Virus genome (UHGV): UHGV-0208829
Strand: one strand, 5' to 3'
Source of the DNA: a virus
Length of the DNA: 62,541 nt
How positions within the stretch are numbered: position 1 is the first letter of the stretch; each line of letters begins with the position of its first letter. The translations under genes and the position numbers were made by a program. Positions 19,128-53,786 of the stretch are shown one piece after another. The notes beneath the pieces were generated by a model. That model saw only the letters and a list, made by a program, of their open reading frames with translations. It was not told where the DNA came from and ran no database searches.

Positions 19128-19856
19128 TTACCTCATAAACAAATCTTCGAGCGGTTCGGCACGCACCGGGTCAACCTGTAGCGCAGAACGAATACCACGT
19201 TTAAGTTCTACGTCTGCAAGTTTCGCCAGTCTCGACGTTTTGTTAAGTGAACCACTGCGCAATGGAATAAACTGCACAGGGTTGTTAAGATCGCTATCTT
19301 TCTTCAGCGTGTAACGGAAGAACGTTCTCGGATCACCTACTTTACGCTGCGTGTGCGCTGCGTAAACGTCAGCGGTAATCTGATCGGCAAATACAGTAAA
19401 ACCGTTCCATTTCTTGACTTTATCAGGTGCCAAGAGTTCAGCATCATCCGCTGCAGTAAACCAGAAAGGACGATTACCAAAGTCGTAAATATACGACGCA
19501 ATGTTGTAAATAGGGTGAGACAACACCTGTAAATTGCGGTTGGGGAAAACCACTGTACCGGGATCAAAACGAAATTCGTAATAAGGAACACCAAAGACGT
19601 CGATCTCTTCAAACGCCGTTGGGGTAATCTCCATAAGCGTTGTAACGCTGGACACCCCATATGTTTTACGGTCGGTAGAAATCGCAAAGATCCCTACAAT
19701 TGTTACCGTAGAAGAAATAACCGCCAACTCTTTCGCCACAAACCCAACGGGGATGTAAATGTAACACCCCCCTTTGGTAGTGGTGACCGTGCCGTTATTT
19801 ACCAAGTCCGCATGAACCTTAGTAGGGTCACGACGGGCTGTTTCAATCGCACTCAC
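19128..19856 (-). CDS. hypothetical protein (about 242 aa)
   Basis: Track start 19862 is GTG abutting the SD; GTG at 19856 has AGGAGG about 5 nt upstream; no in-frame ATG nearby. Confidence 0.45.
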   Translation of the reverse strand: MSAIETARRDPTKVHADLVNNGTVTTTKGGCYIYIPVGFVAKELAVISSTVTIVGIFAISTDRKTYGVSSVTTLMEITPTAFEEIDVFGVPYYEFRFDPGTVVFPNRNLQVLSHPIYNIASYIYDFGNRPFWFTAADDAELLAPDKVKKWNGFTVFADQITADVYAAHTQRKVGDPRTFFRYTLKKDSDLNNPVQFIPLRSGSLNKTSRLAKLADVELKRGIRSALQVDPVRAEPLEDLFMR

Positions 19857-19874
19857 GATCACCTCCTAAGCGCG

Positions 19875-21672: not shown

Positions 21673-24600
21673 TTATTTAAGTGTCGCGGGTAAATCAGGC
21701 ACAGCCTCCCCATCGAGTATACGCCCGATGAGAATCCCGGCTTGTTCACCTACAGCATTCGCGGTACCGATACGTTGGATTGAACCTACGATACGCGCAT
21801 CGACGGAATCACGACCGAACAACACGTCCAGGTCATCGCCATCCTCTGTTTTGTTGTCGCCGTACATGACTTCTTGTACGGTGGTTTTTAGCTGGTTAGC
21901 AATAACCATCTTATCCGCAGCGGCCATCTCAACGTCGTGTGTAATAAAGAATCGAACACAAAGTGAGTTAAAGGCCAAGGGTACACCTTCAACACGGTAG
22001 TCGCCGTTTACACTGCCTGAAACCGGATCACCGCGTCCGACTGCCAGTGCGGCTTTACGACGAATTCTGTCGTATTTACGCACCAGTTCAGCAAGACTTG
22101 GCGTCATGTCTTCGGTTTCACCGTGATACACCACTTCGATTTTATCCACGATACCACGTACCCCTGCACGAGGTGCGTACGAACTTAAACTTTGCAACGT
22201 TGCGGCTGCTTCCTGACTAAAGGCACTCATATCTCCCGTCAAGTCGTCAGTAAACGTGCATAGGATTGTATCGACGTCTACGTGGTCGCCTTCATTCACG
22301 ATTTCCAAAAGCATCTGGTTGCTGTTAATCGTCACTTCTTTCAGCTTTGTTACCTGCCCCACCATTTTCTTCGCGAACCGTTCAGAAATTGCGTTGGAGT
22401 CTTCGATAACTTCTTCAGCTTCTAATAAAGCAACGGTGGCCAGCACCCCGTTTTTCCAGGAAACCTGAGTAGGATCGTAAATATCAGGTTCAAAGTGTTG
22501 CTCGTTGTACGTAATCACTGCCCCGGCCGGGAGCTTGTCACCGGCTTTCCAGCGTGTTACCAAGGTGTGCGGATAGAAGGTACCTTCGTGGGGGCCGAAC
22601 CAGCGCCCTAGAGGAAAGGCTTCTTTACTTCCATCTTCGTACGTAATTTCAATGTGGTCTTTCGACAGACCAGTAATCTTACCTGCTTTATCAATAACGC
22701 GTGCATGTTTCACCGAAGTACGGTGAGCGACGAATTTCTCCTGTTCAGTACGATACGGGGTTGTGGTTGCCCCATTACAACTGGTGGCAGAACCTAACTG
22801 AATCCCAACGAAGTTTTGACGTTTTGCATCGTCCATTAAGGTATCGGGTACTAACCCGTCAATAAACGAAAGGGTATCGCTTGGTTTCGGGGTTTTCTCT
22901 TCACGCTTAAACGTGGTACCGTCAACGGTGTCAAAACGTGGGTTATTGGTGACGAAAGCAGTAATCCCTACGTCGCCGTTATCTACGGTGTTACCCGAGA
23001 CTATCCCGATATCACTGGGTTGGAACTCACGCGTGTGGTAGACCATCGTTTTACGATTACGACCACCTGTACCCCCCATCGTAATAACGTCTTTTTCTTT
23101 AATTGACTGGATAGGGTTAGCGCCTGGTGCCAAAAGTACCGACGGGTCGGAGTTAATTGCACCCCAAACCATGTCTTGCGTCAGTTCGAACTTACGGTTA
23201 CTACCCGGTGCGTTATTGTAGTTACGCATCGCTCTGACCATCGCAGTATAGATGTGGTAGGCAATCCTCTGATTTCCTAAGAACATCATTTCGTCGCCGT
23301 TAATCTCTGGTAAAGAGTGGTCAGTTTGTAACAGTTCGTTAGAACGTTCCAGCAAGCCAATAAAGGTTTCCGGCTCACCCATTTTCCTGAGGATACGTGC
23401 GTGCATGTCGTCAACAAACGCGGACCGCATCTGTTTCAGCTCGTTGATGTACCGTGGTGTTAGGCCATCTGCTTCACGTAATAAGTTCAGGTAAATGTCT
23501 TCGCGGTCTGCTTCTGATTCGGTATAAGCAACCAGGTGTTTGAGATAGCGATCCAAACCATGCAGAATCATCCTCTGCTGATCGTTATCGCAAGTAACTA
23601 AAAGTTTACAGTCTTGTAGTCGAATAATACTGTCGTAGGCATTCTTATCAACACGCTGACCTGTAGGAACCAACTCGTACTGGATACCGAAATGTTTCAA
23701 CATTCCCTGGAGTCCAAGATAGAACGAGAAGATAAAACCAAGCGACAAAGATTTACCCATCAAAGACAGCTCGGTCATTTCGCGAGGCACTTTCTGGTTA
23801 TTAAAGCCCAGTACCTCTGCGATAGTTCCCACCGGTTCAACTTTGTTTCCGTTCACACCGTAAAGCATGGATTTGTCATCCATTGCCAGGATTGTTTCAC
23901 TACGCGGACGTTTCGCCACTGGTAAAAGTTTGGCAGCATCGGCGTCTCTGAGTTGCTCGTCGTTAAAGAAGTTAACGGCTTCTTTGTAGTCGAAGTTCCA
24001 CATATAGCCATTCGCATTAAAGCTGGCAATACGACGTGCAATCTCCGTATACTGACGAGGCAGATGTTGCGTAGGATCGAACACATTTGCTAAACGTGCA
24101 TCGGTGACTTCGGTGTTTGTCGGGTCAACAGCGCGTGTGATGATCGCGTTGGTTAACCAACGACCGTAATCGTTCGCGACCTTATCACTACGACGGACAA
24201 AGTTTTTACCGTAAGCGGTAGTCAGTGCGACAGTATCCGGTGCAACTTTACGAATCGGTAAGTCCACACGTTGCCGACGCATGGTGTATTCGACACCATT
24301 AGCGACCCAAGTACCGTCCTCGGTCAAGCCTGGGATAGAGAAGCGAACGGTTGTTGGCTCACCACCGACTGGCTGAACACGTAAAGTGTGGTGCTCGATA
24401 GTTCCTGTAACAGAAACTTCTTTTTCCACCGTGTGGTTGTGAACCGCCAGACCCAAACGTTGTGAACTGGCGACCGCCGCCAGTACGTCTTTGGTCATCA
24501 TGGTCTGGTTGTATTGTTTCACCATCTGGTCGGTGACGTTCTCTGCCCACCCTTCATCGGTAACAAGCCGCTGAACTTTTTTCGGTTCGGCTTTAACGAC

Positions 24601-25839
24601 AATATCTTTCTCGTGAACAGTCAGTGCTTCCCCGTAGGTTTCTTTCGGGTTATACGGGTTAGGTAGCTGAACGAAACGTTTAGACGATTCTGACAGGAAC
24701 TGATACGCTTTAGAACTTAAGCGGCCCGCTTCAGCTAAGCGTTGTGCTTCCTGTTTAATAATCTCGTCATGCGGAATGACTTTCTCGACGACGATAGTCG
24801 TCGGTTTGACGTCTTCCTTCGGTTCTTCAATAACGACGTCTTCTTTTTCATCGAAGGTGTTATCGGATTCCACCACAGCGTCATTAACAACGTCGTCATC
24901 GTCGACAACATCAACGGTTTCTTCTTCGACGTCTTTAAGGAAAACACGCTCGTCGCCTTCAGGCGTTAGGAATTCCGCTTCGTACGCGTTAGACGGTGCT
25001 TGTGTCATTACACGCACCAGCGTACGGTAGAACATCCTGGCCATTTGGTCGTCACTTAAACGACCGCCGGACGACTTACGCATTTTCTCTACAACACCCA
25101 TGTTCATGGACGTGAAGCCCGTGTTGTGGGTGAAGATAAAGTTCATTCGTGACAGCTGAGTTAAATCCATTCCCGAGAATAAGGAATCGGATTGTTTTCC
25201 ATAAGCCCAAGCAAACAACTCCAATAGCCACAGCAAGTTGAAGTCCTGGAACTTCTCAATCTTGCTCTTAACGCGGTCGTTATAGGTTGTTTGAAACTTC
25301 TGGAACGAAGGTAGAGTCGAACCCAGTTCAATAACGAAATAGTTCTGACGCATGTATTCTTGCGTGTCGTATTTGAACTGGTTAATCATCAACAGTTGGA
25401 TGTTACGCAGTCTATCGTACCAGGCTAACTGGGTGTCAGGATAGTAATAGTGCGATAGCATCGGTGTGTAGTTCTCGACCAGGAGAACTTTTAAGTCTTT
25501 GCGAACCAGATCGTCTGAGGTAAGACGACGCATCGGGCGGTTTGCACGGTGGTAGGCAAAGATAGCACGTTCTTGCCCCTGAACAGGTTTGTTGCGAGGA
25601 TGGCCGCTAATACCGTCTTCCGGTAATTTAAAGTGGTGACGAACCTGTGCAGGTTTTTCTAACGGTTGAATAATCTCGAGTGTTGCAGGTGGCGCTAATA
25701 CCACCTGGTCGAGATCAATGACATGGAGTACAGAACCACGTGGTATCTGTAGCTTCTCGAGCGGGATAATCCTCGGATTACCAAACTCGTCAGTTTTACG
25801 CACCGAGAAGCGTTGGTTAAACTGTTTAATGAGCAGCAT
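21673..25839 (-). CDS. very large protein (1388 aa) immediately downstream of RNAP beta-prime-like gene; possible RNAP partner subunit
   Basis: ATG start 9 nt after upstream stop; acidic low-complexity linker; only weak RNAP-like matches, so function unassigned. Confidence 0.55.
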   Translation of the reverse strand: MLLIKQFNQRFSVRKTDEFGNPRIIPLEKLQIPRGSVLHVIDLDQVVLAPPATLEIIQPLEKPAQVRHHFKLPEDGISGHPRNKPVQGQERAIFAYHRANRPMRRLTSDDLVRKDLKVLLVENYTPMLSHYYYPDTQLAWYDRLRNIQLLMINQFKYDTQEYMRQNYFVIELGSTLPSFQKFQTTYNDRVKSKIEKFQDFNLLWLLELFAWAYGKQSDSLFSGMDLTQLSRMNFIFTHNTGFTSMNMGVVEKMRKSSGGRLSDDQMARMFYRTLVRVMTQAPSNAYEAEFLTPEGDERVFLKDVEEETVDVVDDDDVVNDAVVESDNTFDEKEDVVIEEPKEDVKPTTIVVEKVIPHDEIIKQEAQRLAEAGRLSSKAYQFLSESSKRFVQLPNPYNPKETYGEALTVHEKDIVVKAEPKKVQRLVTDEGWAENVTDQMVKQYNQTMMTKDVLAAVASSQRLGLAVHNHTVEKEVSVTGTIEHHTLRVQPVGGEPTTVRFSIPGLTEDGTWVANGVEYTMRRQRVDLPIRKVAPDTVALTTAYGKNFVRRSDKVANDYGRWLTNAIITRAVDPTNTEVTDARLANVFDPTQHLPRQYTEIARRIASFNANGYMWNFDYKEAVNFFNDEQLRDADAAKLLPVAKRPRSETILAMDDKSMLYGVNGNKVEPVGTIAEVLGFNNQKVPREMTELSLMGKSLSLGFIFSFYLGLQGMLKHFGIQYELVPTGQRVDKNAYDSIIRLQDCKLLVTCDNDQQRMILHGLDRYLKHLVAYTESEADREDIYLNLLREADGLTPRYINELKQMRSAFVDDMHARILRKMGEPETFIGLLERSNELLQTDHSLPEINGDEMMFLGNQRIAYHIYTAMVRAMRNYNNAPGSNRKFELTQDMVWGAINSDPSVLLAPGANPIQSIKEKDVITMGGTGGRNRKTMVYHTREFQPSDIGIVSGNTVDNGDVGITAFVTNNPRFDTVDGTTFKREEKTPKPSDTLSFIDGLVPDTLMDDAKRQNFVGIQLGSATSCNGATTTPYRTEQEKFVAHRTSVKHARVIDKAGKITGLSKDHIEITYEDGSKEAFPLGRWFGPHEGTFYPHTLVTRWKAGDKLPAGAVITYNEQHFEPDIYDPTQVSWKNGVLATVALLEAEEVIEDSNAISERFAKKMVGQVTKLKEVTINSNQMLLEIVNEGDHVDVDTILCTFTDDLTGDMSAFSQEAAATLQSLSSYAPRAGVRGIVDKIEVVYHGETEDMTPSLAELVRKYDRIRRKAALAVGRGDPVSGSVNGDYRVEGVPLAFNSLCVRFFITHDVEMAAADKMVIANQLKTTVQEVMYGDNKTEDGDDLDVLFGRDSVDARIVGSIQRIGTANAVGEQAGILIGRILDGEAVPDLPATLK

Positions 25840-25848
25840 TGCTTAGCC

Positions 25849-27468
25849 TTATGGGTTCTTTAATAACGCTTGCGTTGCACGTTTAATCACGTTGTTGATA
25901 GGATTGATTTTAAAGTTCCCATCAGAATCGAACCAGTAGTTTTTCGAGTGTATCCAATTCCGGTTTTCCTCGAGTGCTTCCTGGGACATAGGCGCGTTAA
26001 ACGACCCGGTATCGCCGTCGTAGTCACCCCCTAAGCCACCTAAGCGTGAAGGGTGTGGTGCCATCGACTCAACGAAGGTAGGAACCGACCGGTCAGGGTA
26101 GCTGATAGCCCCTCGGGGTTTTTCAGTTTCCCAGTCATCTTCCAGTTCTTTTAAGTATAAAGATGACGTGGTGGTCTCCAATCTTATGGTCGATGAATAC
26201 GTCGAGCCTCGGCCTGTAACGGGATAACGTGTAACGAAACCGAAATAATCGTTCCAAAGTTCGTAGCCCGACAAATAAAGCAATTCGACGAGTGTCATAC
26301 CGTGGACGAATTTTCGGTCAAACGTTTTAGGAAGTTCTTCAATATCGTAGAACACCTTAAAATGTTTGGTGTCTTGGTAAACCAACGCAACGTAGTGGGT
26401 GTCGTCCAACATAATCGGCTGATGGCGAAGCTCGCGAGCTTCCATTCGGTTGATTAAGGATTCAATCCCATCGTCGGTGGTGAATGTGTCGTATACACGA
26501 CCACCTACTTCCAAGAATTCACGTTTAAGGGTTTTGGTGTTTACGCCGTAAAGGTTGCCGTCACCAGCACGGATGTTACCGAGGTAACGTTCACGTATCT
26601 GGTATTGCGCAACGGGGAGTAATGCTTTTAAACCCTGGTATAAACCAATTTTGGTGTCGGTGGGACGAATAGCGTCTTCACGACCCATGCACTTAGACCC
26701 CGTCGAGAACGAGGACAGTACGTTACGTGTCCCGTTCATTAATTTACGAGACGTCACTTTACGACGTTGGAAACCCCCTTTACCGTCTTGGATGTTAAAG
26801 AAATACATCCAGATATCGTTGAAGGTTTGTTGCAGCTTCCAGCGTACGGGGTTAGTTAATTCAACACGGGTTGCTCGGTCAGGGATCGCCCTGGCGAGTG
26901 ATACCAACCGACGATACATCCCGCCGATTTCTTCTTCCTGTTCTCTACCATCTTGTCGAATTACTAAATCGCGTAAACCCGCGGGTAACACGAGAACGTA
27001 TCGACTAAGACTAACGGGACGGAATTTCAAAAAGAAATCCACGGTTTCGTCACGTTGTAGAGACTCGTTACGCTTAGGTTTTAAATCGTTATAGTGACTG
27101 AGGAAGAAGTTAAAACCGGTATCTGCGCCTGGGTCTCCCGGCAAGGCCGGTTCGAAATCTTTTTCTTTTTCGCTCCACGTTGCGTAGCGTTTTCCAGAAC
27201 AAATTTCTTCGTAGAGTTGTTTGAGTTGGAATAACGCCAAACACACCGTCGGCGAAATGATATCGAGTTTAATATCGATATAAGAGAAAGTAGAGTCTCG
27301 CGCTTCACTCCCCGTGAGTCCAAATATCTCTGTAGAGTAAAGACCTTCGGGGTGAAAGTTTTTTGTTAACCCCTGGAAAGTATCCGTGGTCGTGACGGGT
27401 CGTAATCGCGACACAAGAGACTTGTTTACATTGAGCAGATAAAAGTCAACCCAATTAAGTTTATTCAC
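25849..27468 (-). CDS. multisubunit RNA polymerase beta-prime-like subunit, N-terminal split fragment
   Basis: 539 aa; YVLVLPAGLRDLV...IGGMYRRL (region B-like), GKGGFQRRKV (region C-like), catalytic GDYDGD at 26011-26025 near C-terminus; GTG start with AGGAG 8 nt upstream. Confidence 0.65.
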   Translation of the reverse strand: MNKLNWVDFYLLNVNKSLVSRLRPVTTTDTFQGLTKNFHPEGLYSTEIFGLTGSEARDSTFSYIDIKLDIISPTVCLALFQLKQLYEEICSGKRYATWSEKEKDFEPALPGDPGADTGFNFFLSHYNDLKPKRNESLQRDETVDFFLKFRPVSLSRYVLVLPAGLRDLVIRQDGREQEEEIGGMYRRLVSLARAIPDRATRVELTNPVRWKLQQTFNDIWMYFFNIQDGKGGFQRRKVTSRKLMNGTRNVLSSFSTGSKCMGREDAIRPTDTKIGLYQGLKALLPVAQYQIRERYLGNIRAGDGNLYGVNTKTLKREFLEVGGRVYDTFTTDDGIESLINRMEARELRHQPIMLDDTHYVALVYQDTKHFKVFYDIEELPKTFDRKFVHGMTLVELLYLSGYELWNDYFGFVTRYPVTGRGSTYSSTIRLETTTSSLYLKELEDDWETEKPRGAISYPDRSVPTFVESMAPHPSRLGGLGGDYDGDTGSFNAPMSQEALEENRNWIHSKNYWFDSDGNFKINPINNVIKRATQALLKNP

Positions 27469-27497
27469 GCTAAATCTCCTGATACGGATTAAACGTT

Positions 27498-30400
27498 ATG
27501 GCTAAAAAAGGTAAAGATGATTTCGATGAAATCGATCTTGATAACATGGACGACTGGGACGATTTTGATGAGCCCCCTCGTCAACAAGACCAATCGCGTA
27601 ACCCGGTCATGGACACATTTCGTGCTGCCCGTAAGTCGGCGTTGTCGACTATCTGGCCCGAAAACAAACGTGATCAGGTTATTTTAAAAGGGATGCCTAA
27701 ACCTGCGGCAGAAGCCTACGAAGGCTATCAAAACGTTAAAGCTGCAGGTCAAGACATTCTGGCCCATACGAAAGACGAGATTGAAAAGACGTCTCGCGTC
27801 GTTAAGATGCAAGCGAGACAGTTAGGCCCAACACTGAAACGGTATTTACCGGAATCCGTAACACGGAAAATCGACAAGTGGGCACGTAACGATCAAATCG
27901 ACTATGGGAATTACGATCCTAAACAAGCGATGATGGATCGTGAGCTGGACAGCGTGTTCTCAGGTGCACCGCAAACGGCGGACCAGCAACGCGAAACGCA
28001 AGAAGGGATGGTTGAAGACCGCTTGCGTGACACGATTAAGGACATGAAGTCCGACGCACTGTTCCAGACAGTAATCGGTATTGCAAAAGACGTCAACTTA
28101 ACGACTAGCTTAAGTCGTGGCGTGTTGTTGAATGTTCAGCGTAAGCAGTTAGAGCTGCAATACCGGACATTGTTTGCTTTGCAGGATATTGCGAAACTCA
28201 AACAAGACGAGTTTGCACGCAATACACCGGCATTAGAAGCCATCGTTAAGAACACAGCACTGCCAGACTACGCGAAGGAAGAGTTTTCTGAAATTCGTTG
28301 GGCTAATGTAAAACGTAAAGCTGCGGAGTGGATGAACCCCTTACACTACGCAGATAATTTCATTGGTCAGATTCGCGAAAACGCGAAGAAGAAAATCTCG
28401 AACATCTTTAGTGATGGTCGTGGGATTCTAGAACAAGTTCTAGGGATGGCTCAGGAAGATGACTTTGACATGTCGGACAGCTCATCGTTGTCTCCTGACC
28501 GTCGTAACACAAACTCGCGTAATAAAGCGGCAGGTTTTGCAGGTGGGTGGGTCGCAAAACGTCTCTTACAACCCCAGATCGAACGTCTTCAGAACTGGAC
28601 CCGTGGCGAGTTAGAGAAAAACCCAGAAGTCATGAAACGCCTACAGTTGGCGAAGTATGGCTTTGGAAATTTGTCGTCTATTTCTAACTCGGCAATAGCA
28701 GGAGAAACAAGCGGTCCGTTAGCTGATCTGTTTCGACTAATGCACGAGTTGGGGTTAGTTAACCCGCTACGTCGCGAAACCTTAGCATTAGACGATCGTT
28801 CTGCGGAATCTCTTTCTGCCGCGGCGAAATTCGATCGTAAAGCTTACCTTAGTATCACCGAAGTTATTCCGACGTTACTGTCCGAGATTAACAAATCTAT
28901 TCGTCGTGGGTATGGCGAACACCACGATCAGGTTTATGACCTGACCACGCGCGGCATGGTGGATCGCAAAGTTATTGGTAATCGCGTACGTAAGGCCGTT
29001 GCTAATGACGATCAGCGCAAACGTTTACAGACGTACATCAACGACACTGTCGACTTTATCGATAAAGATAAAACGCTCGATAGGAAAACACGTCAAGCGT
29101 TAGCGGACTACATCGAATCTCGTGCCTCAGAAGGGAAAGCGTTCGATGTAGGGTCTTTATTGAAAGACCCGATGCACATGTATCGGTACATGAACGCAAA
29201 CGCTGTGGAAGCGATTCAGGGTATTTTAGAAACCCGTTCTGCGGAACTGGTTGGCGGTCACCATGAACTGAGTAATGCGATTTCAAACAAAATCGCCGCT
29301 ATTCAGTCAACGATTCGTGCACGTCAAGACACGGTTGATGCTGCGTCTGTGATTTACGGCGAGAACGCACTTCGCGATTCCGGTATTTTTAAATACGATG
29401 CGAAGAACGACATTTTCGAAGTCGATAAGGACATTAACGATCCCTATACGCTATTTAACGACCTGTCGATGGGTAAGACCCGTTCTGGCCGTTCGTTAAC
29501 CCGTGAGCAAGAGATTCAACGTAAGCTGCAAAATGGTTCTGCGTTGGGTGATTACTTGCGTCGGATGGGTGCAGGAGCAGAGCCGAGCTTTGAAGACAAA
29601 GAACTGTCCAACGTACGTGGTGGTGGAAAAGGTGGTCGCGGTCGTGGTTTAAGCGCCCGTCAACTCGCTGCGGTACTTTATGGAGAGAAATCTACCAACT
29701 TTGTTGAGCTCTTAAGCAACCGTCCAGATACGAACGCTGGGCTGGAACAACAGTTCGATCGATTGATTGATGCGGTACGTAAACAGTCCGAATCTAGCAC
29801 CGTGCAAGATATCCTCAAACACGTTAAGAACATGGATGAGGAAGGTATTCTTCTAGCCAGTTTAGGCGGTAGCCGTGATGACGGTGACGAACCTGAAAGT
29901 TCGAGTGAATCGGGCCGTAAACGTCGTCGTAAGCGCAAACGTATTGTACTAGGCGAGACAGGTTTGCTACGTCGCTGGGCTGGGGTGCTTTGGGATACCG
30001 GTTCTGGTGTAGGACGGTTTGGTAAGAATCTGTTCCTACGTGGGAAAGATCGCCTACAAGCATTAGGTGGTTTTATTCGCGGGAAATTCTCAGGCGGTTC
30101 CTCCGAAGGTCCCGGCGTATTTAGCCGACTGAAAGGGTTAGTAACCGGTACATTATCGACGGGTTGGAATTCTGCCGTAGCTTTCGGTAAAGGCGTTTTA
30201 GGCGTTCGCGACATCTACGATGAACGTGGTAACGTCGTATTACAAGGAAGTCGTTTAGAGGCTGGGGAATATTACCAGGCTGACCCGAAAACTGAGAAGC
30301 TGATTCAACTTAAAACTCTCGACGATATTAAACTGGGACGTGACATCGTCGACGAAGCGGGTAATTTAATCTTAGCGGCTGCTGATTTGGCTGCCGCAGG

Positions 30401-31010
30401 TAAACTGCGCTTCTACAAAGGCGGTAAAGTTCAAGCGCTTTTCCAGTACATTTCTGGGAAAGCAGGAACGGCGGTAAACAAAGCTGTGACTTTACCGAAG
30501 AAACTTCTGGGTTTCATTTCGCCTAAAGCGGCTTCGTTGTTCGAGAAAGCACGCGAGTGGTTAAATGAGGTTCCAGAGGGTGCAGAGAAAACCCGTTTAC
30601 AAAGCATGATTTCCCGCGTAACGGGAATGCCAGCTCGTCTGTGGAACAATGCAAAACGTGGGTTTGAGAAGCTCAAAGAGTTGGCTTCTGATAATCCGTT
30701 GACACGTTGGTGGCAGAACCGTAAGGAAGGGGGCTCTGGTGGTGGGTTTAGTGTGTTCTCGTGGTCGAATGGCCGTAAAACTAACCACATCCTAATCCGT
30801 ATCTACAAACTCCTTAACCGGAGATTGCCAGGTGAACCTGAAGATGACACCTGGACAGAACAGATGGAGCGGAATACAGGGGCCAGTTCAGTTAAAGGAT
30901 TATTCCAACGTGCTAAGGCCATACGCGATGGGTTCCGTGAACATTTTCAAGGTTTCCGGGTTTGCGTGGTCGGATGCGTGACAGAATGTCCCGTTACCGC
31001 AGTGCGGTAG
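27498..31010 (+). CDS. giant protein (1170 aa), probable virion-associated
   Basis: ATG start; acidic N-terminus, Gly/Arg-rich and polybasic RKRRRKRKR segments. Confidence 0.55.
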   Translation: MAKKGKDDFDEIDLDNMDDWDDFDEPPRQQDQSRNPVMDTFRAARKSALSTIWPENKRDQVILKGMPKPAAEAYEGYQNVKAAGQDILAHTKDEIEKTSRVVKMQARQLGPTLKRYLPESVTRKIDKWARNDQIDYGNYDPKQAMMDRELDSVFSGAPQTADQQRETQEGMVEDRLRDTIKDMKSDALFQTVIGIAKDVNLTTSLSRGVLLNVQRKQLELQYRTLFALQDIAKLKQDEFARNTPALEAIVKNTALPDYAKEEFSEIRWANVKRKAAEWMNPLHYADNFIGQIRENAKKKISNIFSDGRGILEQVLGMAQEDDFDMSDSSSLSPDRRNTNSRNKAAGFAGGWVAKRLLQPQIERLQNWTRGELEKNPEVMKRLQLAKYGFGNLSSISNSAIAGETSGPLADLFRLMHELGLVNPLRRETLALDDRSAESLSAAAKFDRKAYLSITEVIPTLLSEINKSIRRGYGEHHDQVYDLTTRGMVDRKVIGNRVRKAVANDDQRKRLQTYINDTVDFIDKDKTLDRKTRQALADYIESRASEGKAFDVGSLLKDPMHMYRYMNANAVEAIQGILETRSAELVGGHHELSNAISNKIAAIQSTIRARQDTVDAASVIYGENALRDSGIFKYDAKNDIFEVDKDINDPYTLFNDLSMGKTRSGRSLTREQEIQRKLQNGSALGDYLRRMGAGAEPSFEDKELSNVRGGGKGGRGRGLSARQLAAVLYGEKSTNFVELLSNRPDTNAGLEQQFDRLIDAVRKQSESSTVQDILKHVKNMDEEGILLASLGGSRDDGDEPESSSESGRKRRRKRKRIVLGETGLLRRWAGVLWDTGSGVGRFGKNLFLRGKDRLQALGGFIRGKFSGGSSEGPGVFSRLKGLVTGTLSTGWNSAVAFGKGVLGVRDIYDERGNVVLQGSRLEAGEYYQADPKTEKLIQLKTLDDIKLGRDIVDEAGNLILAAADLAAAGKLRFYKGGKVQALFQYISGKAGTAVNKAVTLPKKLLGFISPKAASLFEKAREWLNEVPEGAEKTRLQSMISRVTGMPARLWNNAKRGFEKLKELASDNPLTRWWQNRKEGGSGGGFSVFSWSNGRKTNHILIRIYKLLNRRLPGEPEDDTWTEQMERNTGASSVKGLFQRAKAIRDGFREHFQGFRVCVVGCVTECPVTAVR

Positions 31011-34000
31011 GTGGCCGTCTTTCTCGTTGGGGTGGTGCAGCACGTGATTGGTTTGACCGTTTCCGTGGCCGTGCAAGCGATATGGTCGATACCTTCCGTG
31101 ATCCGCGTTACGATATCGGAACACGTTATCGAATGGAGAGTCGTTTAGCAGGACGCGATGACGACGTTGCTGAGTTTTATCGTCAACACATCTACGCAAG
31201 AGGCAAGGTGTCTAAAACACGTATCATCGATGCGGCAAAAGAAGACTTAGATACCGTAACGGATAGCGCTGGACGTGTGATTAATAAAGGGAAACAGAAA
31301 GCCCGTAGCGTTGGGTCGGCTTTACTGGAACGCCTGAACAGAATGGTTAATCTTCAGGAAATGTCGTGGTTTAATACCATGCGCGATTCTGCGGAAAAAG
31401 CAGGTGCTTCGGATGGTTTGTTAAGAACCATGTTCAGTAAGTTCGGTCAACGTAACAAGCCACCTGCCAGTGATGAAAAACGCGATTACTTCCAGTTCTT
31501 CCGACGCCGTCGTCGTTCTAAGGAAGAGGAAAAGGCTAAGAAAGAGGCTGAGAAGAAAGGCGGTAAACGTGGGGTAATGGATTTCCTTAAAGGACTGCCG
31601 TTGGTAGGACCGATTGTGAGTATTTTAGGCACAGTGGGTTCAATCTTAGGTAAAGTCGCAAAATGGGGAATCTTTAAGCCGGTTGGGTTTGCAGGCAAAG
31701 CGTTGTGGAACGTTGGTAAATTTGCCGTAACCCGTTTGGCTGTTCCTGCGGTGAGTGCTGTCGCGACGGCAGCATCTGCAGTGGTAACTGCGGTTGGCTG
31801 GCCGATTATCGGTTTGGTTGCTGCAGGCGCTGCGTTGTCTTGGTTTGCGTATAAAACTGCAACCCGTGTGAATGCCCAGTATCTGGATAACATGCGATTG
31901 GCACAGTACGGATTTAGAGATCATGATGAGTGGTCTTCCGATGATGGTGCAAAAGCACGTTATTTAGAAGACAACTTGAAACCGTATATCTCTTATACAG
32001 AGAACGGTCAAGCACAGTTGCGTGGTTTGTCCGGTGACGACGTGAAGAAACTGGCCGAAGGGTTTGGTACTAACGTAGAAGACAAAGGCGAAATGCTGGC
32101 GTTTACTGCGTTTATGTTACAACGTTTTGTGCCGATCTATTTACGTTGGATTACAGCGTTACGTTCAATGGATAACGATATCGCGTTAGCTGATGTTGGT
32201 AATCCGTCGAAGGTATCAAAAGCAGACATGCTTACCATCTTTAACAAAATGAAGATGACAAAAGATGCGCCCGCTTTTAAATCGCTGACAGACCCCCGTA
32301 AAGTTAACCAAGGTTGGTTCTCTAAAGCGTGGGATTTCGTGACCTTCACACCGGCAGAATTTTTGTCAGGTGAAGAAGTTGTCGAAGCACAAGATCGTGT
32401 TTTCCGTTCGATCAACATGCGTCGTGATGATAAGCGTAAGGAAACAACTGGAGTCGGTGCTGTGCCTGAAGGACATAAGGTTGCTTCTGTGGCAGAATCT
32501 TCGCAGGTACTCGCGAAGAACGATACCGAGCGTAACGAAACTGTTGCTAAAGCTGAGGGTTGGGAAGACGGTACTGAACAGGTTCAAATTCAAGTTGACT
32601 GGAGAGTATTACCTGAGAAGAAAGATTTGGACGCGATGGAATCCGTCCGTTGGAAATCTTACGGTGTGAAATCTGTTAATGAGACAACACGTACCCTCTT
32701 TAGGTTGCTTGAGAAAGAAGTGTTGAAGGACACGGATATCAAAAATTGCATTTATAAGGGCGATTGGAAGAAAGCAATTTCTGCGATTGCGCCTGATGCA
32801 ATTGGCGGTCCAAAAGAGGAACGTTACAAGAACTGGTTCTATAATCGATTCTTACCTGTATTCATGACTTACGTTTATGGTGTAAAACGCTACGTACCTC
32901 ATGCCGATCCGTTGGATCTGAAACTCACAGGGGGGTTCCTCTATGAGCTGGCACTGATGATGCGTGGTGCTTACAACATGAAAGGGGGTATCCGACAGTC
33001 TGTGTGGGAAATCGCATTTAACCCGTTAGGGGGCGATGCGAATACCGATGCAGGTTCAGTGAGGGAAGAATTAGCAACGCTGAAAGAGTTGTCTAAAGAA
33101 CCCGATCTGGCTGTAAGGAATATGCTCAAAGAAACACCGAGCACGCCTAAGCGTATGACATGGAAATCGCCAGCGACAAACTCCAGTGTCCATCAGACGA
33201 ATGAAGATAGCAAAGAGCGTTATAAGGGAATTAACAGCTACGGCGAAGCTTCAAACGACGGCTACTTACCGAAGGGTGGCCAGTCCTACGGTACGCCAGG
33301 TGACCTATCACAAGTTGTTGGCGATATGGGTATAGGGAACTATGCGAAATACTCCACTGGACAATCGGGTATCACCCTCGGTGAGTTACAAGACGGTGAT
33401 TACAAGTCGTTAGTGACTAAATACCCAAGGGAAGTGCTCGGCAAACCGATGCAGTCAAATACTGAAGCCATCAAGTCATTGATTATTGACGCGGCAAACA
33501 TGGTGGGTATTCCGCCATCTGTTGCGATTGCAATGGCACAAGCAGAATCTGGCTTGCAGTATGGCAACTATCCTGGCGCATCCTCTGGCAGACCGAGAAG
33601 TAATAAGATGACTGCCGCTGGCCTGTTCCAATTCACCAACGGTACTTGGAACGGGGTTATGAAGCAATACGCCCGAAGATACGGTATCCCACAAACCGAT
33701 CAGTTCGACCCGTGGGCTAACGCAATCTTAGGTGTTAACTTCATTAGAGACAACATCAAGACCGCACAAAAGGATCTGGGTGGGATTGCCCCGCCACCGG
33801 CAGTAGCGTACCTATACCACTTCTTAGGTCCAGGTGGTGGTGCTGAGTTCCTTAAAGCCTGGAAAACCAATCCTAACGGCTCGCCCGACAAAGTGAAGTA
33901 CATTACACCTGCCGTTCTTAACGGTAACGAAGGTGTTTTCTACATCATGAACGGGAAGAAACGCGTTAGGATGCGTACGGTCGGCGAGGTTGTCGAGGAG

Positions 34001-34663
34001 CTGAACCGCCGTATGGGTGCGGTTGGAACTAACGAGATTGCAGCAAATCCTGCGTCTGCGAAAAACATGACAAAAGGGTTATCGCCAGTTCCATCGTCTC
34101 CTGCAATTGCTGCGGGCGCTGCTAACGATCCGTCTATTGCTGGACCGGCAGATAACCTGCCAGCCGCGAACGAGGCGAATCGTGACACCGCTTTAGCAGA
34201 CAAAGGTGCGATGGGTGCCGAAGATATTAAAGCTGCAACGGGTGGTGGTCCGGCTGTGCCGAGTCCTGGCGGCGACGTTACGCCGAGTGATGCGTCTGTC
34301 GTTGTAGAAACGGTGGGTAAAAATGCGCGTGCCGACGGCCTGGCCGAAGAGGAAGTTGCCAAAGTAAAAGAAGGTGCTAGACAGCAAATGGAGAAATCCG
34401 CACGTCCTGCACCAACGGTAACGTCTGATGCACAGACTGCGCCAACAGTGAACAGCGGCGATCCGATTAGCGTACAACAGCTGGCGGTTGCAAAAGAGTC
34501 TGCGGGCTATCTGAGAGAGATTGTTACAATTCTTCGTCAGCGGCCACAGGCTATGCAGCCATCCCCAGCGACCTCGGCAGCTTCTGCTCCGGGATCAGCA
34601 TCACGTAACATCGCGGTTGAACAACCTGCCCGCCAACTCGATGTTGGTCGTAAACGGGCGTAA
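30974..34663 (+). CDS. giant protein with lytic transglycosylase (SLT) domain and transmembrane segments
   Basis: First ATG at 30974 (track start 30962 is TTG); SLT motifs AMAQAESGLQ ... AAGLFQF ... AYLYHFLGPGG around 33430-33900; hydrophobic stretch; Ala/Pro-rich C-terminus. Confidence 0.6.
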   Translation: MRDRMSRYRSAVGGRLSRWGGAARDWFDRFRGRASDMVDTFRDPRYDIGTRYRMESRLAGRDDDVAEFYRQHIYARGKVSKTRIIDAAKEDLDTVTDSAGRVINKGKQKARSVGSALLERLNRMVNLQEMSWFNTMRDSAEKAGASDGLLRTMFSKFGQRNKPPASDEKRDYFQFFRRRRRSKEEEKAKKEAEKKGGKRGVMDFLKGLPLVGPIVSILGTVGSILGKVAKWGIFKPVGFAGKALWNVGKFAVTRLAVPAVSAVATAASAVVTAVGWPIIGLVAAGAALSWFAYKTATRVNAQYLDNMRLAQYGFRDHDEWSSDDGAKARYLEDNLKPYISYTENGQAQLRGLSGDDVKKLAEGFGTNVEDKGEMLAFTAFMLQRFVPIYLRWITALRSMDNDIALADVGNPSKVSKADMLTIFNKMKMTKDAPAFKSLTDPRKVNQGWFSKAWDFVTFTPAEFLSGEEVVEAQDRVFRSINMRRDDKRKETTGVGAVPEGHKVASVAESSQVLAKNDTERNETVAKAEGWEDGTEQVQIQVDWRVLPEKKDLDAMESVRWKSYGVKSVNETTRTLFRLLEKEVLKDTDIKNCIYKGDWKKAISAIAPDAIGGPKEERYKNWFYNRFLPVFMTYVYGVKRYVPHADPLDLKLTGGFLYELALMMRGAYNMKGGIRQSVWEIAFNPLGGDANTDAGSVREELATLKELSKEPDLAVRNMLKETPSTPKRMTWKSPATNSSVHQTNEDSKERYKGINSYGEASNDGYLPKGGQSYGTPGDLSQVVGDMGIGNYAKYSTGQSGITLGELQDGDYKSLVTKYPREVLGKPMQSNTEAIKSLIIDAANMVGIPPSVAIAMAQAESGLQYGNYPGASSGRPRSNKMTAAGLFQFTNGTWNGVMKQYARRYGIPQTDQFDPWANAILGVNFIRDNIKTAQKDLGGIAPPPAVAYLYHFLGPGGGAEFLKAWKTNPNGSPDKVKYITPAVLNGNEGVFYIMNGKKRVRMRTVGEVVEELNRRMGAVGTNEIAANPASAKNMTKGLSPVPSSPAIAAGAANDPSIAGPADNLPAANEANRDTALADKGAMGAEDIKAATGGGPAVPSPGGDVTPSDASVVVETVGKNARADGLAEEEVAKVKEGARQQMEKSARPAPTVTSDAQTAPTVNSGDPISVQQLAVAKESAGYLREIVTILRQRPQAMQPSPATSAASAPGSASRNIAVEQPARQLDVGRKRA

Positions 34664-39450: not shown

Positions 39451-39747
39451 TTATACCGCGACAGGCGCAGCAATATGTGGTTGTGCTTGATATCCAACCA
39501 ATTCGAAGTCTTCGTATTTATAATCGAAGATAGAATCAGGTTTACGTTTGATAACCAGTTTAGGTAACGGATAAGGTTCACGGGTAAGCTGAAGTTTTGC
39601 TTGCTCCAGATGGTTAGAGTACAAATGGACGTCTACGCCACTGTAAACCAACTCGTCTGGAACCATGTTCAGTTGTTGAGCAACGATGTGTGTTAACAAC
39701 GCGTAAGAGGCGATGTTAAATGGCAAACCTAAGAATACGTCATTACT
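39451..39747 (-). CDS. thyA: thymidylate synthase, exon 2
   Basis: [18 protein letters not shown]...HLYSNH...PHIAAPVAV matches the ThyA C-terminal half; in frame with exon 1 after intron removal. Confidence 0.85.
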
Positions 39748-40831
39748 CATTACGTTCAGATGCGGTCGTTAGTCGCATCCCGCGCCATTACGCGCAGCTG
39801 CATGTCACCATGCAGATCGGACTATATCACCCTCTACAATGTAGAGGCTCTCCCGTTTCGAGAACACTTGTTCCCTACGAACAGTCACGTTCTAGTCTCT
39901 GGGCATTTATCTGACCATTTCCATGTGGCATACTTTGGATTTTTACTGTTTACTCTCCAGAGGACAACGGTTTTGTGTTTACCTAGCTGTCTTCCGGCCT
40001 CTGTAATACTTTCGTATTCGATGCCGTCAATGTTTACTGGTCTGCTGTTTGTGGGCTTGGTACCCATCATGCGTTCGGCAAGTTTACGTTTAGTCTCGTC
40101 AGAATGTTGTCTACCGTAAAAAGGATTTTTCTCTCCAACACGCTGTGAAGCAATGATGGATAACTTTCTACGTGTTTCCTCACTGCGTTTTATCCCGATG
40201 CACGGTGAGGTATTATGTTTATACCATTCTGCTAACTTCTCTCTAATTTTCTTCCTGGTTTCGGGAGTATGCGTGCGACCATACATGCCATTTGCCTTGC
40301 CGAATTTACCGTAAATTTTTTGACGTTCTTCCTTTGTCATTTTTGAGAATCTTCGATAGAGCGAGTTAGTCATTTTTTGAATAATCTCTGCCCTTCTTGG
40401 ATTCCTACTAATGCAGTCGTAACCGCATTCAATGTTAACAAACCCTTTTTCACTACTAATCATTTTCTGTTCGAGCTCTCGCGCCTTCGTTTTAGATGAA
40501 CAAGGCACGATAGTTGGGTTACCGTCGTATCTATATCCTTCATTCCAGATTTTCTGGAGTGTAAAGTTATGATGCGTACCTTTCTCTAACAGATTTAAAT
40601 GAATTTTGATACGCTCGTTGAAATCACGAGTCTCTCCGACGTAGCGAAAACGTTTTTCACCTTTTACGAAAGTAATAATGTAAACAACTGCCATAGGACC
40701 TCCTTTGTTTCATATTAAAAGGTTGTCCTAGAAATGGTTCGAATTTAGCAACGGGTTCTCTCCGTGGAGTTCTTCCCGTTTTAAGGAGAGTTTTTCGACT
40801 AAGGTCACCCTTAGAAGGCGCAGTTATGTTT
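39748..40831 (-). mobile_element. group I self-splicing intron (1084 nt) in thyA
   Basis: Exon 1 ends in U (CGU), intron ends in G (AAUG|AGU); R-like element CAGAGACUAGAAC (39889-39901) and S-like element GAUAUAGUCC (39819-39828) give P7 GACUA/UAGUC; splice restores KLSCFYMMR|SNDVFLGLP. Confidence 0.8.
39885..40694 (-). CDS. intron-encoded GIY-YIG homing endonuclease (I-TevI-like)
   Basis: VYIITF...RYVGET...LEKGTHHNFTLQKIWNEGY matches I-TevI catalytic domain; NUMOD-like repeats; C-terminal HTH-like region; AAGGAGG upstream of ATG. Confidence 0.85.
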   Translation of the reverse strand: MAVVYIITFVKGEKRFRYVGETRDFNERIKIHLNLLEKGTHHNFTLQKIWNEGYRYDGNPTIVPCSSKTKARELEQKMISSEKGFVNIECGYDCISRNPRRAEIIQKMTNSLYRRFSKMTKEERQKIYGKFGKANGMYGRTHTPETRKKIREKLAEWYKHNTSPCIGIKRSEETRRKLSIIASQRVGEKNPFYGRQHSDETKRKLAERMMGTKPTNSRPVNIDGIEYESITEAGRQLGKHKTVVLWRVNSKNPKYATWKWSDKCPETRT

Positions 40832-41569
40832 ACGCATCATGTAAAAACATGAAAGTTTACGACGCGGGATACCTTCACGATCTAAAGTTTCATGAAGTCG
40901 TTCTTCATCATCAATATCTTCGTGATTAATAAGTGGTGCGTTCGCAAATTTTTCCGGTTCATTTGCTTCGTACCAATCCAGTCGCTCAAGCAGTGTCATT
41001 TCTGTAGTGTAGAACTGGAAGTAGTTGTGACACGGATTAAGTGCCATATCGTCCAGGTCACCTACATTCCAGGCACTAACAATAATACGGCGGGAGTCAG
41101 GGTCTTCACGAAGTTGTTGGATAACTTTCCCGATCTGGTCATGTGCTTTTTCATAAACCAAATACGTCGTACCATCTTCCTTCATATTCCCAATATACTT
41201 GTAACCCCGCTGCATTAGTTGTTGCGTACGTCTTACGTCATGACACTCCACAACTTTACAGTCGCGCCATTCGCGCCATTGTTTACCATAAACTGGCCCT
41301 AAGTTCCCCTCTTCATCACTCCATGCATTCCAGATTTTTACCCCGTTCTCTTGCAGGTACTTCACGTTAGTGTCACCGTTTAAGAACCACAACAGTTCAT
41401 GAATGATACTTTTCAGGTGAACCTTTTTCGTAGTAACTAATGGGAAACCTTCTTTCAAGTCAAAACGTAGTTGACGACCAAATACAGAAAGTGTCCCTAC
41501 ACCTGTACGATCTTTCTTAACAACGCCGTTATTCAGAATGTCTTGCATTAACGATAAATACTGTTTCAT
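40832..41569 (-). CDS. thyA: thymidylate synthase, exon 1
   Basis: [74 protein letters not shown]; active-site PCH at 41027-41035; track ORF reads 6 codons into intron before stop. Confidence 0.9.
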
Positions 41570-48488: not shown

Positions 48489-49164
48489 ATAAAGCGGCAT
48501 CTCGTGGGTCGACACCGACCCACTCTGCCATAAACCGGATATGTTCCTTAAACGGGTTAACCCCGTCTTGTTTGATTTGTTCGACCAATTCCCCGGTCAG
48601 TTCTGGTGTGAGCATGGCAGGGTGTGTGATGGTAAAGCTTGGAATCGGTTTTTTCAAGTGTGTAGCGTTAAGCTTAATCCACTCGAACCAATCGTACATT
48701 ATCCAGCAATCCCACGCCAATGACAATCTCCCCGGTGTGAGATCTTCTAACGACCAAGACACTAATTCAACTTGTACGTTATTGTAGTACATCCGAAACA
48801 GATTCAAAAAGGCTTGAAGTTCTTCGCCCGTTAAATCCGTATAAGGCCACGTATTGATGGTCAGAGTGGGCTTTTCAATTGGCGAATGCATTTCGATTTC
48901 AAGCAACATACACTCGAATTCGTTTTTCATTGTTGCCAATAATTCAGTAGGCTGCGCATTAATCAACGCGCGCTTATCCCGCTTCCGCCACTCTTCATCC
49001 CATTTTTCAAATCCAAGTACGCCAGCCCAAGCTTCTGTATAGCGACGACGATAAACATCGTAGTCTAGCAATGCTAAGCTTTCAGGCTTAACGGCTTTTA
49101 CCCAACCTAAACGCGTATCAAATAACGTATCAATATCGATTAAGAAACGCCGAGATAATCTCAT
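48442..49164 (-). CDS. hypothetical protein (240 aa)
   Basis: ATG start, ATGA overlap with upstream gene. Confidence 0.5.
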   Translation of the reverse strand: MRLSRRFLIDIDTLFDTRLGWVKAVKPESLALLDYDVYRRRYTEAWAGVLGFEKWDEEWRKRDKRALINAQPTELLATMKNEFECMLLEIEMHSPIEKPTLTINTWPYTDLTGEELQAFLNLFRMYYNNVQVELVSWSLEDLTPGRLSLAWDCWIMYDWFEWIKLNATHLKKPIPSFTITHPAMLTPELTGELVEQIKQDGVNPFKEHIRFMAEWVGVDPRDAALFSLARPAQDVQTPPS

Positions 49165-49829
49165 GACGGATGGCCTATGTTGTTACCGATATGCATCGCT
49201 TTTAGGTACGCCGACCACGTACGCGTTGCTTTAGAACTCGTTCGCTCCGCTCCAGGCAAGTCAATACGCCCTTTACCGGTTTGGCGCAGCGATTGATAGA
49301 AAGCACGTTGTAGTGCGTCGTTACCACCACGCGCCCACAAGAACTCTTTCAGTGTCCAGTCGTGACCATCGGAGTACATGATGTATGCCTCTGGGAAGGA
49401 CACCCCGGATGCTTTGGAAGGTCCGACGACTTGACCGGAGAGTTTATCGCGAACTTTGTCGTTTTTCGCAACCGCCATTTTCTTTTCTTGCATCTGTGTC
49501 TGACGACGGACAGGCAAGCGTAAGACTAAGTGAGGGTAACGAGTACGGTGATAGACACCCGTTTTTGGTTCTGTTAACCAGAGTCGTTGCTCCAGGTTTA
49601 CCCCGAGAATTTTGCACACCTCGATATTGCGCAGGTGATCAATTTCGACTTTACTTCCCACCGGGTTGTAAATAGGCAAACCGTTACGAAGTCGGTTAAA
49701 CTGTTCGTCGGTCATTCGTGCGAAGGCTTTCTTCGCGGCTTCGGCATTAATGCCAGAAGGGTCTACCAACTTTAAGATTTGTAAGGCGTAGGCTTCCGCC
49801 TTTTTACGCCGCGCTGGTTCGAGTTTCAT
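49161..49829 (-). CDS. hypothetical protein (222 aa)
   Basis: ATG start. Confidence 0.5.
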   Translation of the reverse strand: MKLEPARRKKAEAYALQILKLVDPSGINAEAAKKAFARMTDEQFNRLRNGLPIYNPVGSKVEIDHLRNIEVCKILGVNLEQRLWLTEPKTGVYHRTRYPHLVLRLPVRRQTQMQEKKMAVAKNDKVRDKLSGQVVGPSKASGVSFPEAYIMYSDGHDWTLKEFLWARGGNDALQRAFYQSLRQTGKGRIDLPGAERTSSKATRTWSAYLKAMHIGNNIGHPS

Positions 49830-52861: not shown

Positions 52862-53761
52862 TTATTTCCCACGATAAAATCCAGAAATGTAACTCGGCGC
52901 TATCCATCGCCATTCGCGCCAGCGCATTTCTGACATCTTACCACACCATACACGCTTCCAATGCGCACGACGGATATGTGCGGCGCAATAAATCGCCAAA
53001 CAAACCTCGTGTCCTTCCTTGCGTTGCTGCTCTATATCTTCCCATTGTAGCGGACTTACATCTAAAACGACCGCTTCACTACGTGGGCGAATTTCTGTAT
53101 CAGGAACATAACGAATGGACCTTCCACGAAATTCTTTCTTCTCACGTTCAGTTCGTTTAATTCGCGATGAAAGATATAACCCGATGTAGACCGCGTCGAG
53201 TAGTCGTTGATTCTCCTTAACCGAAGTAAGGAGCGGCTTTAACTCCACGAAATCATCATTACTTTTATCGATCGTGTAAATCTCAAACTCCATGTATACC
53301 GACTCGTCATGTTCTTCGCATGACATCACAAAGAGAACTTCTTCACCTTCGTAAAGACGTCTTCCGATAAATAACGTGATTGGACTTTCGTCGAGATTTA
53401 CAGTAACCGAGAAAGTAAATGAAGGGATGGTTTCTATCCAGAAGTACGGGATATTTTTTAGTCTCTCAGTTTTTGCTAAGAGCGCCATCAGTTCTTCATC
53501 CGAGATGATTTCAACAGCAGCGTATTGCCATCCTAGTCCCAGGGACTGCTTAATCAGTCTGGGGATCTGTTCGGTAACGCCATACTCACGATAGGTCGGA
53601 TCTTTAACTGGCATAAACGTTACGGGTATTTGACGTTTATGCTCGTTAATGAACCGAATAAAGCGACACTGATCTAATCCGTGAATTGTTTGGTGTGCCT
53701 TTTCTATTTGTTCGCTCATGCGTCTTAGCGCTTTCCCGTAAAGTCTATTATTCGTTGTCAT
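52862..53761 (-). CDS. hypothetical protein, tandem paralog B (299 aa)
   Basis: Track start 53917 overlaps upstream gene; ATG at 53761 has AGGAG 8 nt upstream; C-terminal AAHIRRAHWKRVW...WIAPSYISGFY. Confidence 0.5.
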   Translation of the reverse strand: MTTNNRLYGKALRRMSEQIEKAHQTIHGLDQCRFIRFINEHKRQIPVTFMPVKDPTYREYGVTEQIPRLIKQSLGLGWQYAAVEIISDEELMALLAKTERLKNIPYFWIETIPSFTFSVTVNLDESPITLFIGRRLYEGEEVLFVMSCEEHDESVYMEFEIYTIDKSNDDFVELKPLLTSVKENQRLLDAVYIGLYLSSRIKRTEREKKEFRGRSIRYVPDTEIRPRSEAVVLDVSPLQWEDIEQQRKEGHEVCLAIYCAAHIRRAHWKRVWCGKMSEMRWREWRWIAPSYISGFYRGK

Positions 53762-53786
53762 TTTAATACTCCTAAACACTTTTAGC

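Follow-up and report, generated by a model that had tools for sequence, protein, structure and literature searches.

The open reading frame (ORF) at 25849–27468, on the minus strand, encodes with a probability that we put at about 95% the N-terminal subunit of a split β′ (β′N) belonging to a virion RNA polymerase (vRNAP). Coordinates refer throughout to the window, by which we mean the whole 62,541-nucleotide stretch of viral DNA analysed here. phiKZ-like phages have two multisubunit RNA polymerases (RNAPs), a virion enzyme (vRNAP) and a non-virion enzyme (nvRNAP), and the protein is an ortholog of the virion subunits (SPN3US gp240, phiKZ gp180) rather than of the non-virion paralog. The window belongs to a jumbo phage related to phiKZ, of the SPN3US/phiEaH2 type, whose genome measures about 224 kb, and three verified pieces of the phage's vRNAP lie within the window: β′N, βN and βC. 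Because β′N is plainly orthologous to a subunit that has been described and studied by experiment, it counts as already known, and we see no new biology here beyond what SPN3US and phiKZ have provided; the assignment is relevant to annotation, to host-defence evasion and to phage-therapy considerations.

The β′N gene and its similarity to cellular β′

The 539-aa ORF that the initial annotation had reported, with its strand unstated, is present and lies on the minus strand; the plus strand over the same interval is riddled with stop codons. Direct reading of the sequence places a GTG start codon at 27468 and a Shine-Dalgarno sequence, AGGAG, at 27476–27480 on the minus strand, separated from the start by a 7-nt spacer. 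The sole alternative in-frame start within codons 1–30 is a GTG at codon 19, which lacks a Shine-Dalgarno sequence, and gene callers also arrived at 539 aa for β′N on four related contigs. Only 29 bp (27469–27497) lie between this start and that of the divergently oriented gene for a giant virion protein with an SLT domain, so the promoters of either gene must sit within the coding sequence of the other.

All four sequence motifs named in the initial annotation are found in the protein, and in the canonical order given there. Profile alignment places LPAGLRDLV (residues 161–169; 26962–26988, minus strand) in a block resembling β′ region B, which continues to YRRL (residues 185–188; 26905–26916, minus strand); the block aligns with 'vlpPeLRpi...inelYRRv' of plastid RpoC1 and with approximately residues 314–430 of bacterial β′ (Streptomyces/mycobacterial numbering), and its residues A163, R166 and Y185 are invariant in a 28-sequence alignment of β′N homologs. 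The block resembling region C, also placed by profile alignment, is GKGGFQRRKV (residues 229–238; 26755–26784, minus strand), followed by GTRNV (246–250). It aligns with 'GKeGrfRetllgkRvdysGRsVi' of RpoC1 and with 'GKKGFLRKNImgsRInfsaRNVi' of the phage AR9 β′N, and G229, K230, R241, G246, T247, R248 and V250 are invariant in the same alignment.

The catalytic Mg2+-binding aspartate triad, D482/D484/D486, is found in GDYDGD (residues 481–486; 26011–26028, minus strand), which the profile alignment matches to NADFDGD of plastid and E. coli β′ and to the identical GDYDGD of AR9. In the 28-sequence alignment D482 is invariant and D484 and D486 are conserved in at least 90% of sequences. In a larger set of 268 β′N homologs, 244 have xxDxDGD, and the GGDYDGD variant seen here (residues 480–486) occurs in 31. 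The chain ends 53 residues after GDYDGD, as compared with 50–69 residues in 228 of the 244 homologs that bear the motif; the motif is therefore close to the C-terminus, as originally described, although the distance of 58 residues given at the time is trivially off (53 after the motif, 59 counting from its first G). The protein has only three cysteines (76, 90 and 260), none of them invariant in the family, and it has no counterpart of the Cys4 zinc element found at the N-terminus of bacterial β′. This absence sets β′N apart from cellular β′, and the element is not required in the phage clade.

The relationship to β′ is seen most clearly with family profiles. PHROG 2986 ('RNA polymerase beta subunit') matches β′N over its full length (E 7e-234), well outside what chance would give. 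When the 28-sequence alignment, whose members span 38–85% identity, was used as a profile to search the PDB, the best match was the β′N of the non-virion RNAP of Bacillus phage AR9 (7S00/7S01 chain d, E 4e-13), followed by plastid RpoC1 and cyanobacterial gamma (~1e-9) and by dozens of bacterial β′ chains (~1e-6). Profile positions 469–528 align to E. coli β′ 447–507, and HMM alignments show regions B and C and the DxDGD loop to be collinear between the profile and both the cellular and the AR9 β′. The comparison with RpoC that had been proposed as a check thus matched β′ chains and aligned the catalytic loop to NADFDGD. Such profiles were needed for β′N and for its partners βN and βC, as single-sequence PDB searches were insufficient: they returned only a marginal plastid RpoC1 match for β′N (E 0.4), chance laccase matches for βN, and nothing for βC. 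Scanning the 539-, 1388- and 1170-aa proteins against Pfam gave no match even at E<=1, which implies that the Pfam RNAP models are blind to the phage RNAP clade. The predicted structure of β′N gave low global TM-scores (~0.3) and a pLDDT below 50 in the catalytic loop, as expected for an isolated fragment of a multi-domain protein.

Based on these observations, β′N contains the fold elements of β′ as far as the double-psi β-barrel (DPBB) and its DxDGD metal-binding loop, both included: the barrel, the aspartate triad and the collinear regions B and C are those of the N-terminal half of a largest subunit (β′/A′/Rpb1). The PHROG and PDB profile matches and the conserved triad therefore support the earlier proposal of a split β′ N-terminal subunit. 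The other architecture that we considered, the single-polypeptide two-barrel RNAP of crAss-like phi14:2 gp66 and P23-45 gp96, has both DPBBs in one chain and no collinearity with β/β′; β′N does not have these features, and we rejected it. Family membership and synteny also bear out the placement in or near the phiKZ-like group, but not the argument by which the initial annotation reached it, that a β′ ending just after the active site is a hallmark of these phages. In cyanobacteria and plastids, too, β′ is split, gamma and RpoC1 being the respective N-terminal halves, so the split is not diagnostic by itself; family membership and synteny are. These two cellular chains differ from β′N in length (592–688 aa), and identity to cellular β′ in general is 11–14%.

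Assignment to the virion enzyme

β′N is 86% identical to SPN3US gp240 over the full length and 32% identical to phiKZ gp180 (E 2e-72), versus no significant BLASTP match to the nvRNAP subunit gp55 (E 2.1). In agreement with these values, the gene order equals that of phiKZ gp175–gp182 and SPN3US gp238–gp245: a head maturation protease, gp176/gp244-like and gp177/gp243-like genes, a small ORF, βN and β′N, and then, divergently oriented, the giant SLT-domain virion protein and a gp182/gp238-like gene. This is the neighbourhood of a phiKZ-like (Chimalliviridae-type) vRNAP β′N gene, with βN directly downstream, the head protease cluster beyond it and the giant SLT-domain gene on the divergent side. 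Orthologs of SPN3US gp241, gp244, gp218, gp239, gp238 and gp245 are all in the window with their order kept, and the flanking genes include terminase, tail sheath, head protease and virion proteins. The likeness to phiKZ extends through protease, gp176, gp177, gp178 and gp180 and then the divergent gp181 and gp182. The likeness to SPN3US includes the same neighbours, gene order and split point. SPN3US gp240 is annotated with 537 aa (519 aa according to Thomas et al.), the SPN3US genome is 240 kb rather than ~224 kb, and nucleotide identity across the RNAP genes is ~75%; no functional difference between the two β′N proteins is apparent.

The profile search could be read as pointing instead to the nvRNAP, that is, to an enzyme of the phiKZ gp55 or AR9 gp270 type that acts on middle and late genes in the phage nucleus: among solved structures the AR9 non-virion β′N comes closest, and no virion-RNAP chain (phiKZ gp180- or gp178-like) is among the PDB matches. 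The AR9 chain, from a Bacillus phage with uracil-containing DNA, is a non-virion paralog of 410–448 aa with 15–16% identity, and phiKZ gp55 (PDB 7OGP chain A), from the nucleus-located middle/late enzyme, has no significant BLASTP similarity to β′N. Given the 86% identity to gp240 and the difference between the E values for gp180 and gp55, we rejected the non-virion paralog as highly improbable.

It is similarly hard to sustain that β′N descends from β′ but is catalytically dead and purely a structural protein of the head. The loop does read GGDYDGD instead of NADFDGD, and the bacterial Cys4 zinc element is missing; however, the three aspartates are kept and are invariant or nearly so across hundreds of diverged homologs, the active AR9 enzyme also has GDYDGD, the blocks that contact RNA and DNA are invariant, and early transcription is credited to the phiKZ vRNAP. 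We give almost no credence to a fragment of cellular rpoC, whether host-derived, of the split cyanobacterial/plastid type, or a contaminant. Although the best PDB matches include two proteins that also end after the active site, plastid RpoC1 and cyanobacterial gamma, identity to cellular β′ is just 11–14%, the close relatives are all jumbo-phage genes (323 phage records), the neighbours are phage terminase, tail sheath, head protease and virion proteins, and the identical protein is found on phage-like contigs of ~224 kb. The conserved triad, and the phage relatives and neighbourhood, led us to reject both of these explanations, leaving the β′N of the virion enzyme as the assignment, which none of our observations contradicts.

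What this enzyme does has been studied in relatives. Thomas et al. (2016) assigned SPN3US gp240 as β′N, gp241 as βN, gp218 as βC and gp42 as β′M, with gp244 as candidate β′C (PMC5105663). The SPN3US vRNAP subunits and gp244 were all detected in virions, and in a gp241 amber mutant gp240, gp42, gp218 and gp244 were lost from the particles (PMC5105663). phiKZ gp180 is present at ~10 copies per virion, is injected with the DNA and co-immunoprecipitates gp178, gp80 and gp149 (PMC10612078), and early transcription in the early-infection vesicle has been attributed to the vRNAP that phiKZ injects (bioRxiv 10.1101/2024.03.24.586471). From these SPN3US and phiKZ experiments we infer virion packaging and early, host-independent transcription for the phage in the window.

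In the mechanism that we propose, β′N contributes one barrel of a two-barrel RNAP, the metal-binding DPBB, together with the clamp-core, lid and rudder region, and the second barrel comes from the adjacent β-like protein, βN. Cellular RNAPs (bacterial, cyanobacterial and plastid) use α2, ω and σ. By analogy with the studied phages, β′N, β′M, possibly β′C, βN and βC would form a single enzyme that has no α, ω or host σ, and the complex would be loaded into the prohead in a step that, as in SPN3US, may depend on βN. Some 10 copies would then be ejected with the DNA and would transcribe early genes independently of the host RNAP, probably including those for the second, non-virion RNAP. Infection is thus predicted to be started by an injected phage enzyme that is independent of the host's. 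Host-independent transcription as it is understood in phiKZ would also need that second enzyme, whose genes lie outside the window.

Partner subunits in the window

The βN gene (21673–25839, minus strand) encodes a 1388-aa ortholog of SPN3US gp241 and phiKZ gp178 (PHROG 3148). It lies downstream of β′N on the same strand with a gap of 9 nt, an arrangement from which the two genes are probably co-transcribed. Its product shares 77% identity with gp241 and, over the full length, 31% with phiKZ gp178. The family profile matches only bacterial RpoB in the PDB (T. thermophilus, E 3e-11) and is collinear with T. thermophilus β from ~117 to 914, including the GDKxxxxxxxKG barrel segment. The N-terminal ~480 residues are without a counterpart in cellular β; this extension contains a strongly acidic, low-complexity stretch at about residues 300–345, DDDDVVNDAVVESDNTFDEKEDVVIEEPKEDVKP.

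The remainder of β is encoded elsewhere: the βC gene (49161–49829, minus strand), 23 kb from the β′N gene but in the same window, encodes a 222-aa ortholog of SPN3US gp218 and phiKZ gp149 (PHROG 3233, E 6e-93), with 83% identity to gp218 and 36.5% to PHIKZ149. An 8-sequence profile matches RpoB only (E. coli β 1164–1310, E 6e-5), and the segment covered implies that βC continues β downstream of the end of βN.

The status of β′C is different. The candidate proposed in the literature, the virion protein related to SPN3US gp244 and phiKZ gp176, is encoded at 19128–19862 (minus strand; 242–244 aa), with 87% and 31% identity to these two proteins, respectively. Two profiles of this gp244-like protein found no β′ or other largest-subunit RNAP chain in the PDB, all matches being at chance level. 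The sole RNAP-associated match was to plastid PAP12/omega (E 0.93, chance level), the first profile gave a chance-level match to the lambda-P helicase loader (E 0.0035), and the broader profile, to which phiKZ, PhiPA3, Ralstonia, Serratia and Vibrio homologs had been added, gave nothing. The AF2 model has a pLDDT of 54.6, and Foldseek returned no match for it at E<=0.001. The gp244-like protein therefore stays a candidate for β′C, which our searches could not confirm and do not refute. Since neither the two profiles nor the model show similarity to β′, it may instead be a phage-specific accessory or packaging subunit of the vRNAP and not the missing β′ C-terminus; if so, no part of the β′ a17-a20 region would be present in this clade's virion enzyme. 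The 244-aa ORF opens with GTG; gene calls on related contigs give 242 aa, and SPN3US gp244 aligns from residue 3 onwards, so the true start is probably two codons downstream, at ~19856.

The search for further RNAP fragments that the initial annotation had recommended was thus rewarded, within the window, by βN and βC, whereas β′ homology of the gp244-like protein did not emerge. PHROG scans of 33 ORFs of the window found no RNAP families beyond β′N, βN and βC, and tblastn with phiKZ gp55, gp68, gp71, gp73, gp74 and gp80 found neither β′M (gp80) nor nvRNAP subunits in the window. Rfam at the gathering threshold detected no RNA families in the window, and ARAGORN no tRNAs.

Distribution and interrupted genes

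The β′N family is large: 323 phage records have a match, and among representatives of 50% identity clusters there are 1618 at E<=1e-3 and 624 at E<=1e-30, nearly all of ~540 aa. The identical 539-aa protein occurs in 331 indexed blocks of public assemblies, including ~224-kb metagenome contigs and two NCBI assemblies, and one contig with the identical β′N is 98.4% identical to the window in nucleotide sequence over 20.5 kb. In a Salmonella Wangata assembly, a 220-kb contig carries a relative with 96% identity. This phage is common both in Salmonella assemblies and in metagenomes. Its nearest named relatives are phiEaH2, Stratton, Asesino and the SPN3US group (~75% nucleotide and 85–86% amino-acid identity). 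Among the Salmonella phages SPFM5-15 (LR5359xx), several records match the β′N, βC and gp244-like proteins in pieces, with 6–22% coverage; their sister SPFM records give full-length matches, and the fragmented ones look like broken gene models (frameshifted or error-rich).

Unlike the uninterrupted β′N gene in the window, that of phiKZ (NC_004629, 14242–17259, minus strand) appears in two parts. The annotated gp180 has 490 aa and ends in '...APLGAD', and its continuation ('FDGDT...', FDGDTVSFNAVYSEEA) follows ~1.45 kb farther downstream, on the other side of the gp179 ORF, from which we conclude that the gp180 gene is interrupted inside its catalytic NADFDGD-type motif. About 20 of the 268 β′N homologs (about 7%, phiKZ gp180 included) end at or just after the first catalytic aspartate, which on sequence grounds suggests a recurrent insertion site at this codon of β′N genes. 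In PhiPA3, introns with homing endonucleases have been documented in vRNAP genes (PMC11620839). When related phages co-infect, their homing endonucleases may accordingly target the intron-less β′N allele of the window. This would parallel the case of PhiPA3 gp210, which reportedly interferes with phiKZ gp178. These two modest suggestions, the gp244-like protein as an accessory or packaging subunit and the intron-less β′N gene as a homing-endonuclease target, we regard as rather unlikely.

An interrupted gene is found in the window itself, that for thymidylate synthase (39454–41569, minus strand), of which residues 1–235 are encoded at 41569–40847 and residues 241–338 at 39747–39454. The ~1.1-kb insert carries a homing-endonuclease ORF (39885–40694, PHROG 314) and has a weak Rfam match to a group I intron (39798–39984, 21.9 bits, E 0.0066) that is below the gathering score. 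The thymidylate synthase genes of SPN3US and phiEaH2, in contrast, are uninterrupted.

The giant virion gene with the SLT transglycosylase domain (27498–34663, plus strand; phiKZ gp181/SPN3US gp239-like, PHROG 3201) is also split, into two overlapping ORFs at 27498–31010 (1170 aa) and 30962–34663 (1233 aa). The cause is a 1-nt deletion at ~30964–30965 relative to the 98.4%-identical contig; that contig and two related ones encode a single 2388-aa protein, and a fourth encodes one of 2374 aa. The deletion could be a sequencing error or else a genuine mutation that inactivates the gene or requires a frameshift. Finally, two adjacent, overlapping ORFs on the minus strand, at 52862–53917 (351 aa) and 53787–54713 (308 aa), both match the uncharacterised PHROG 6160 and look like tandem paralogs.
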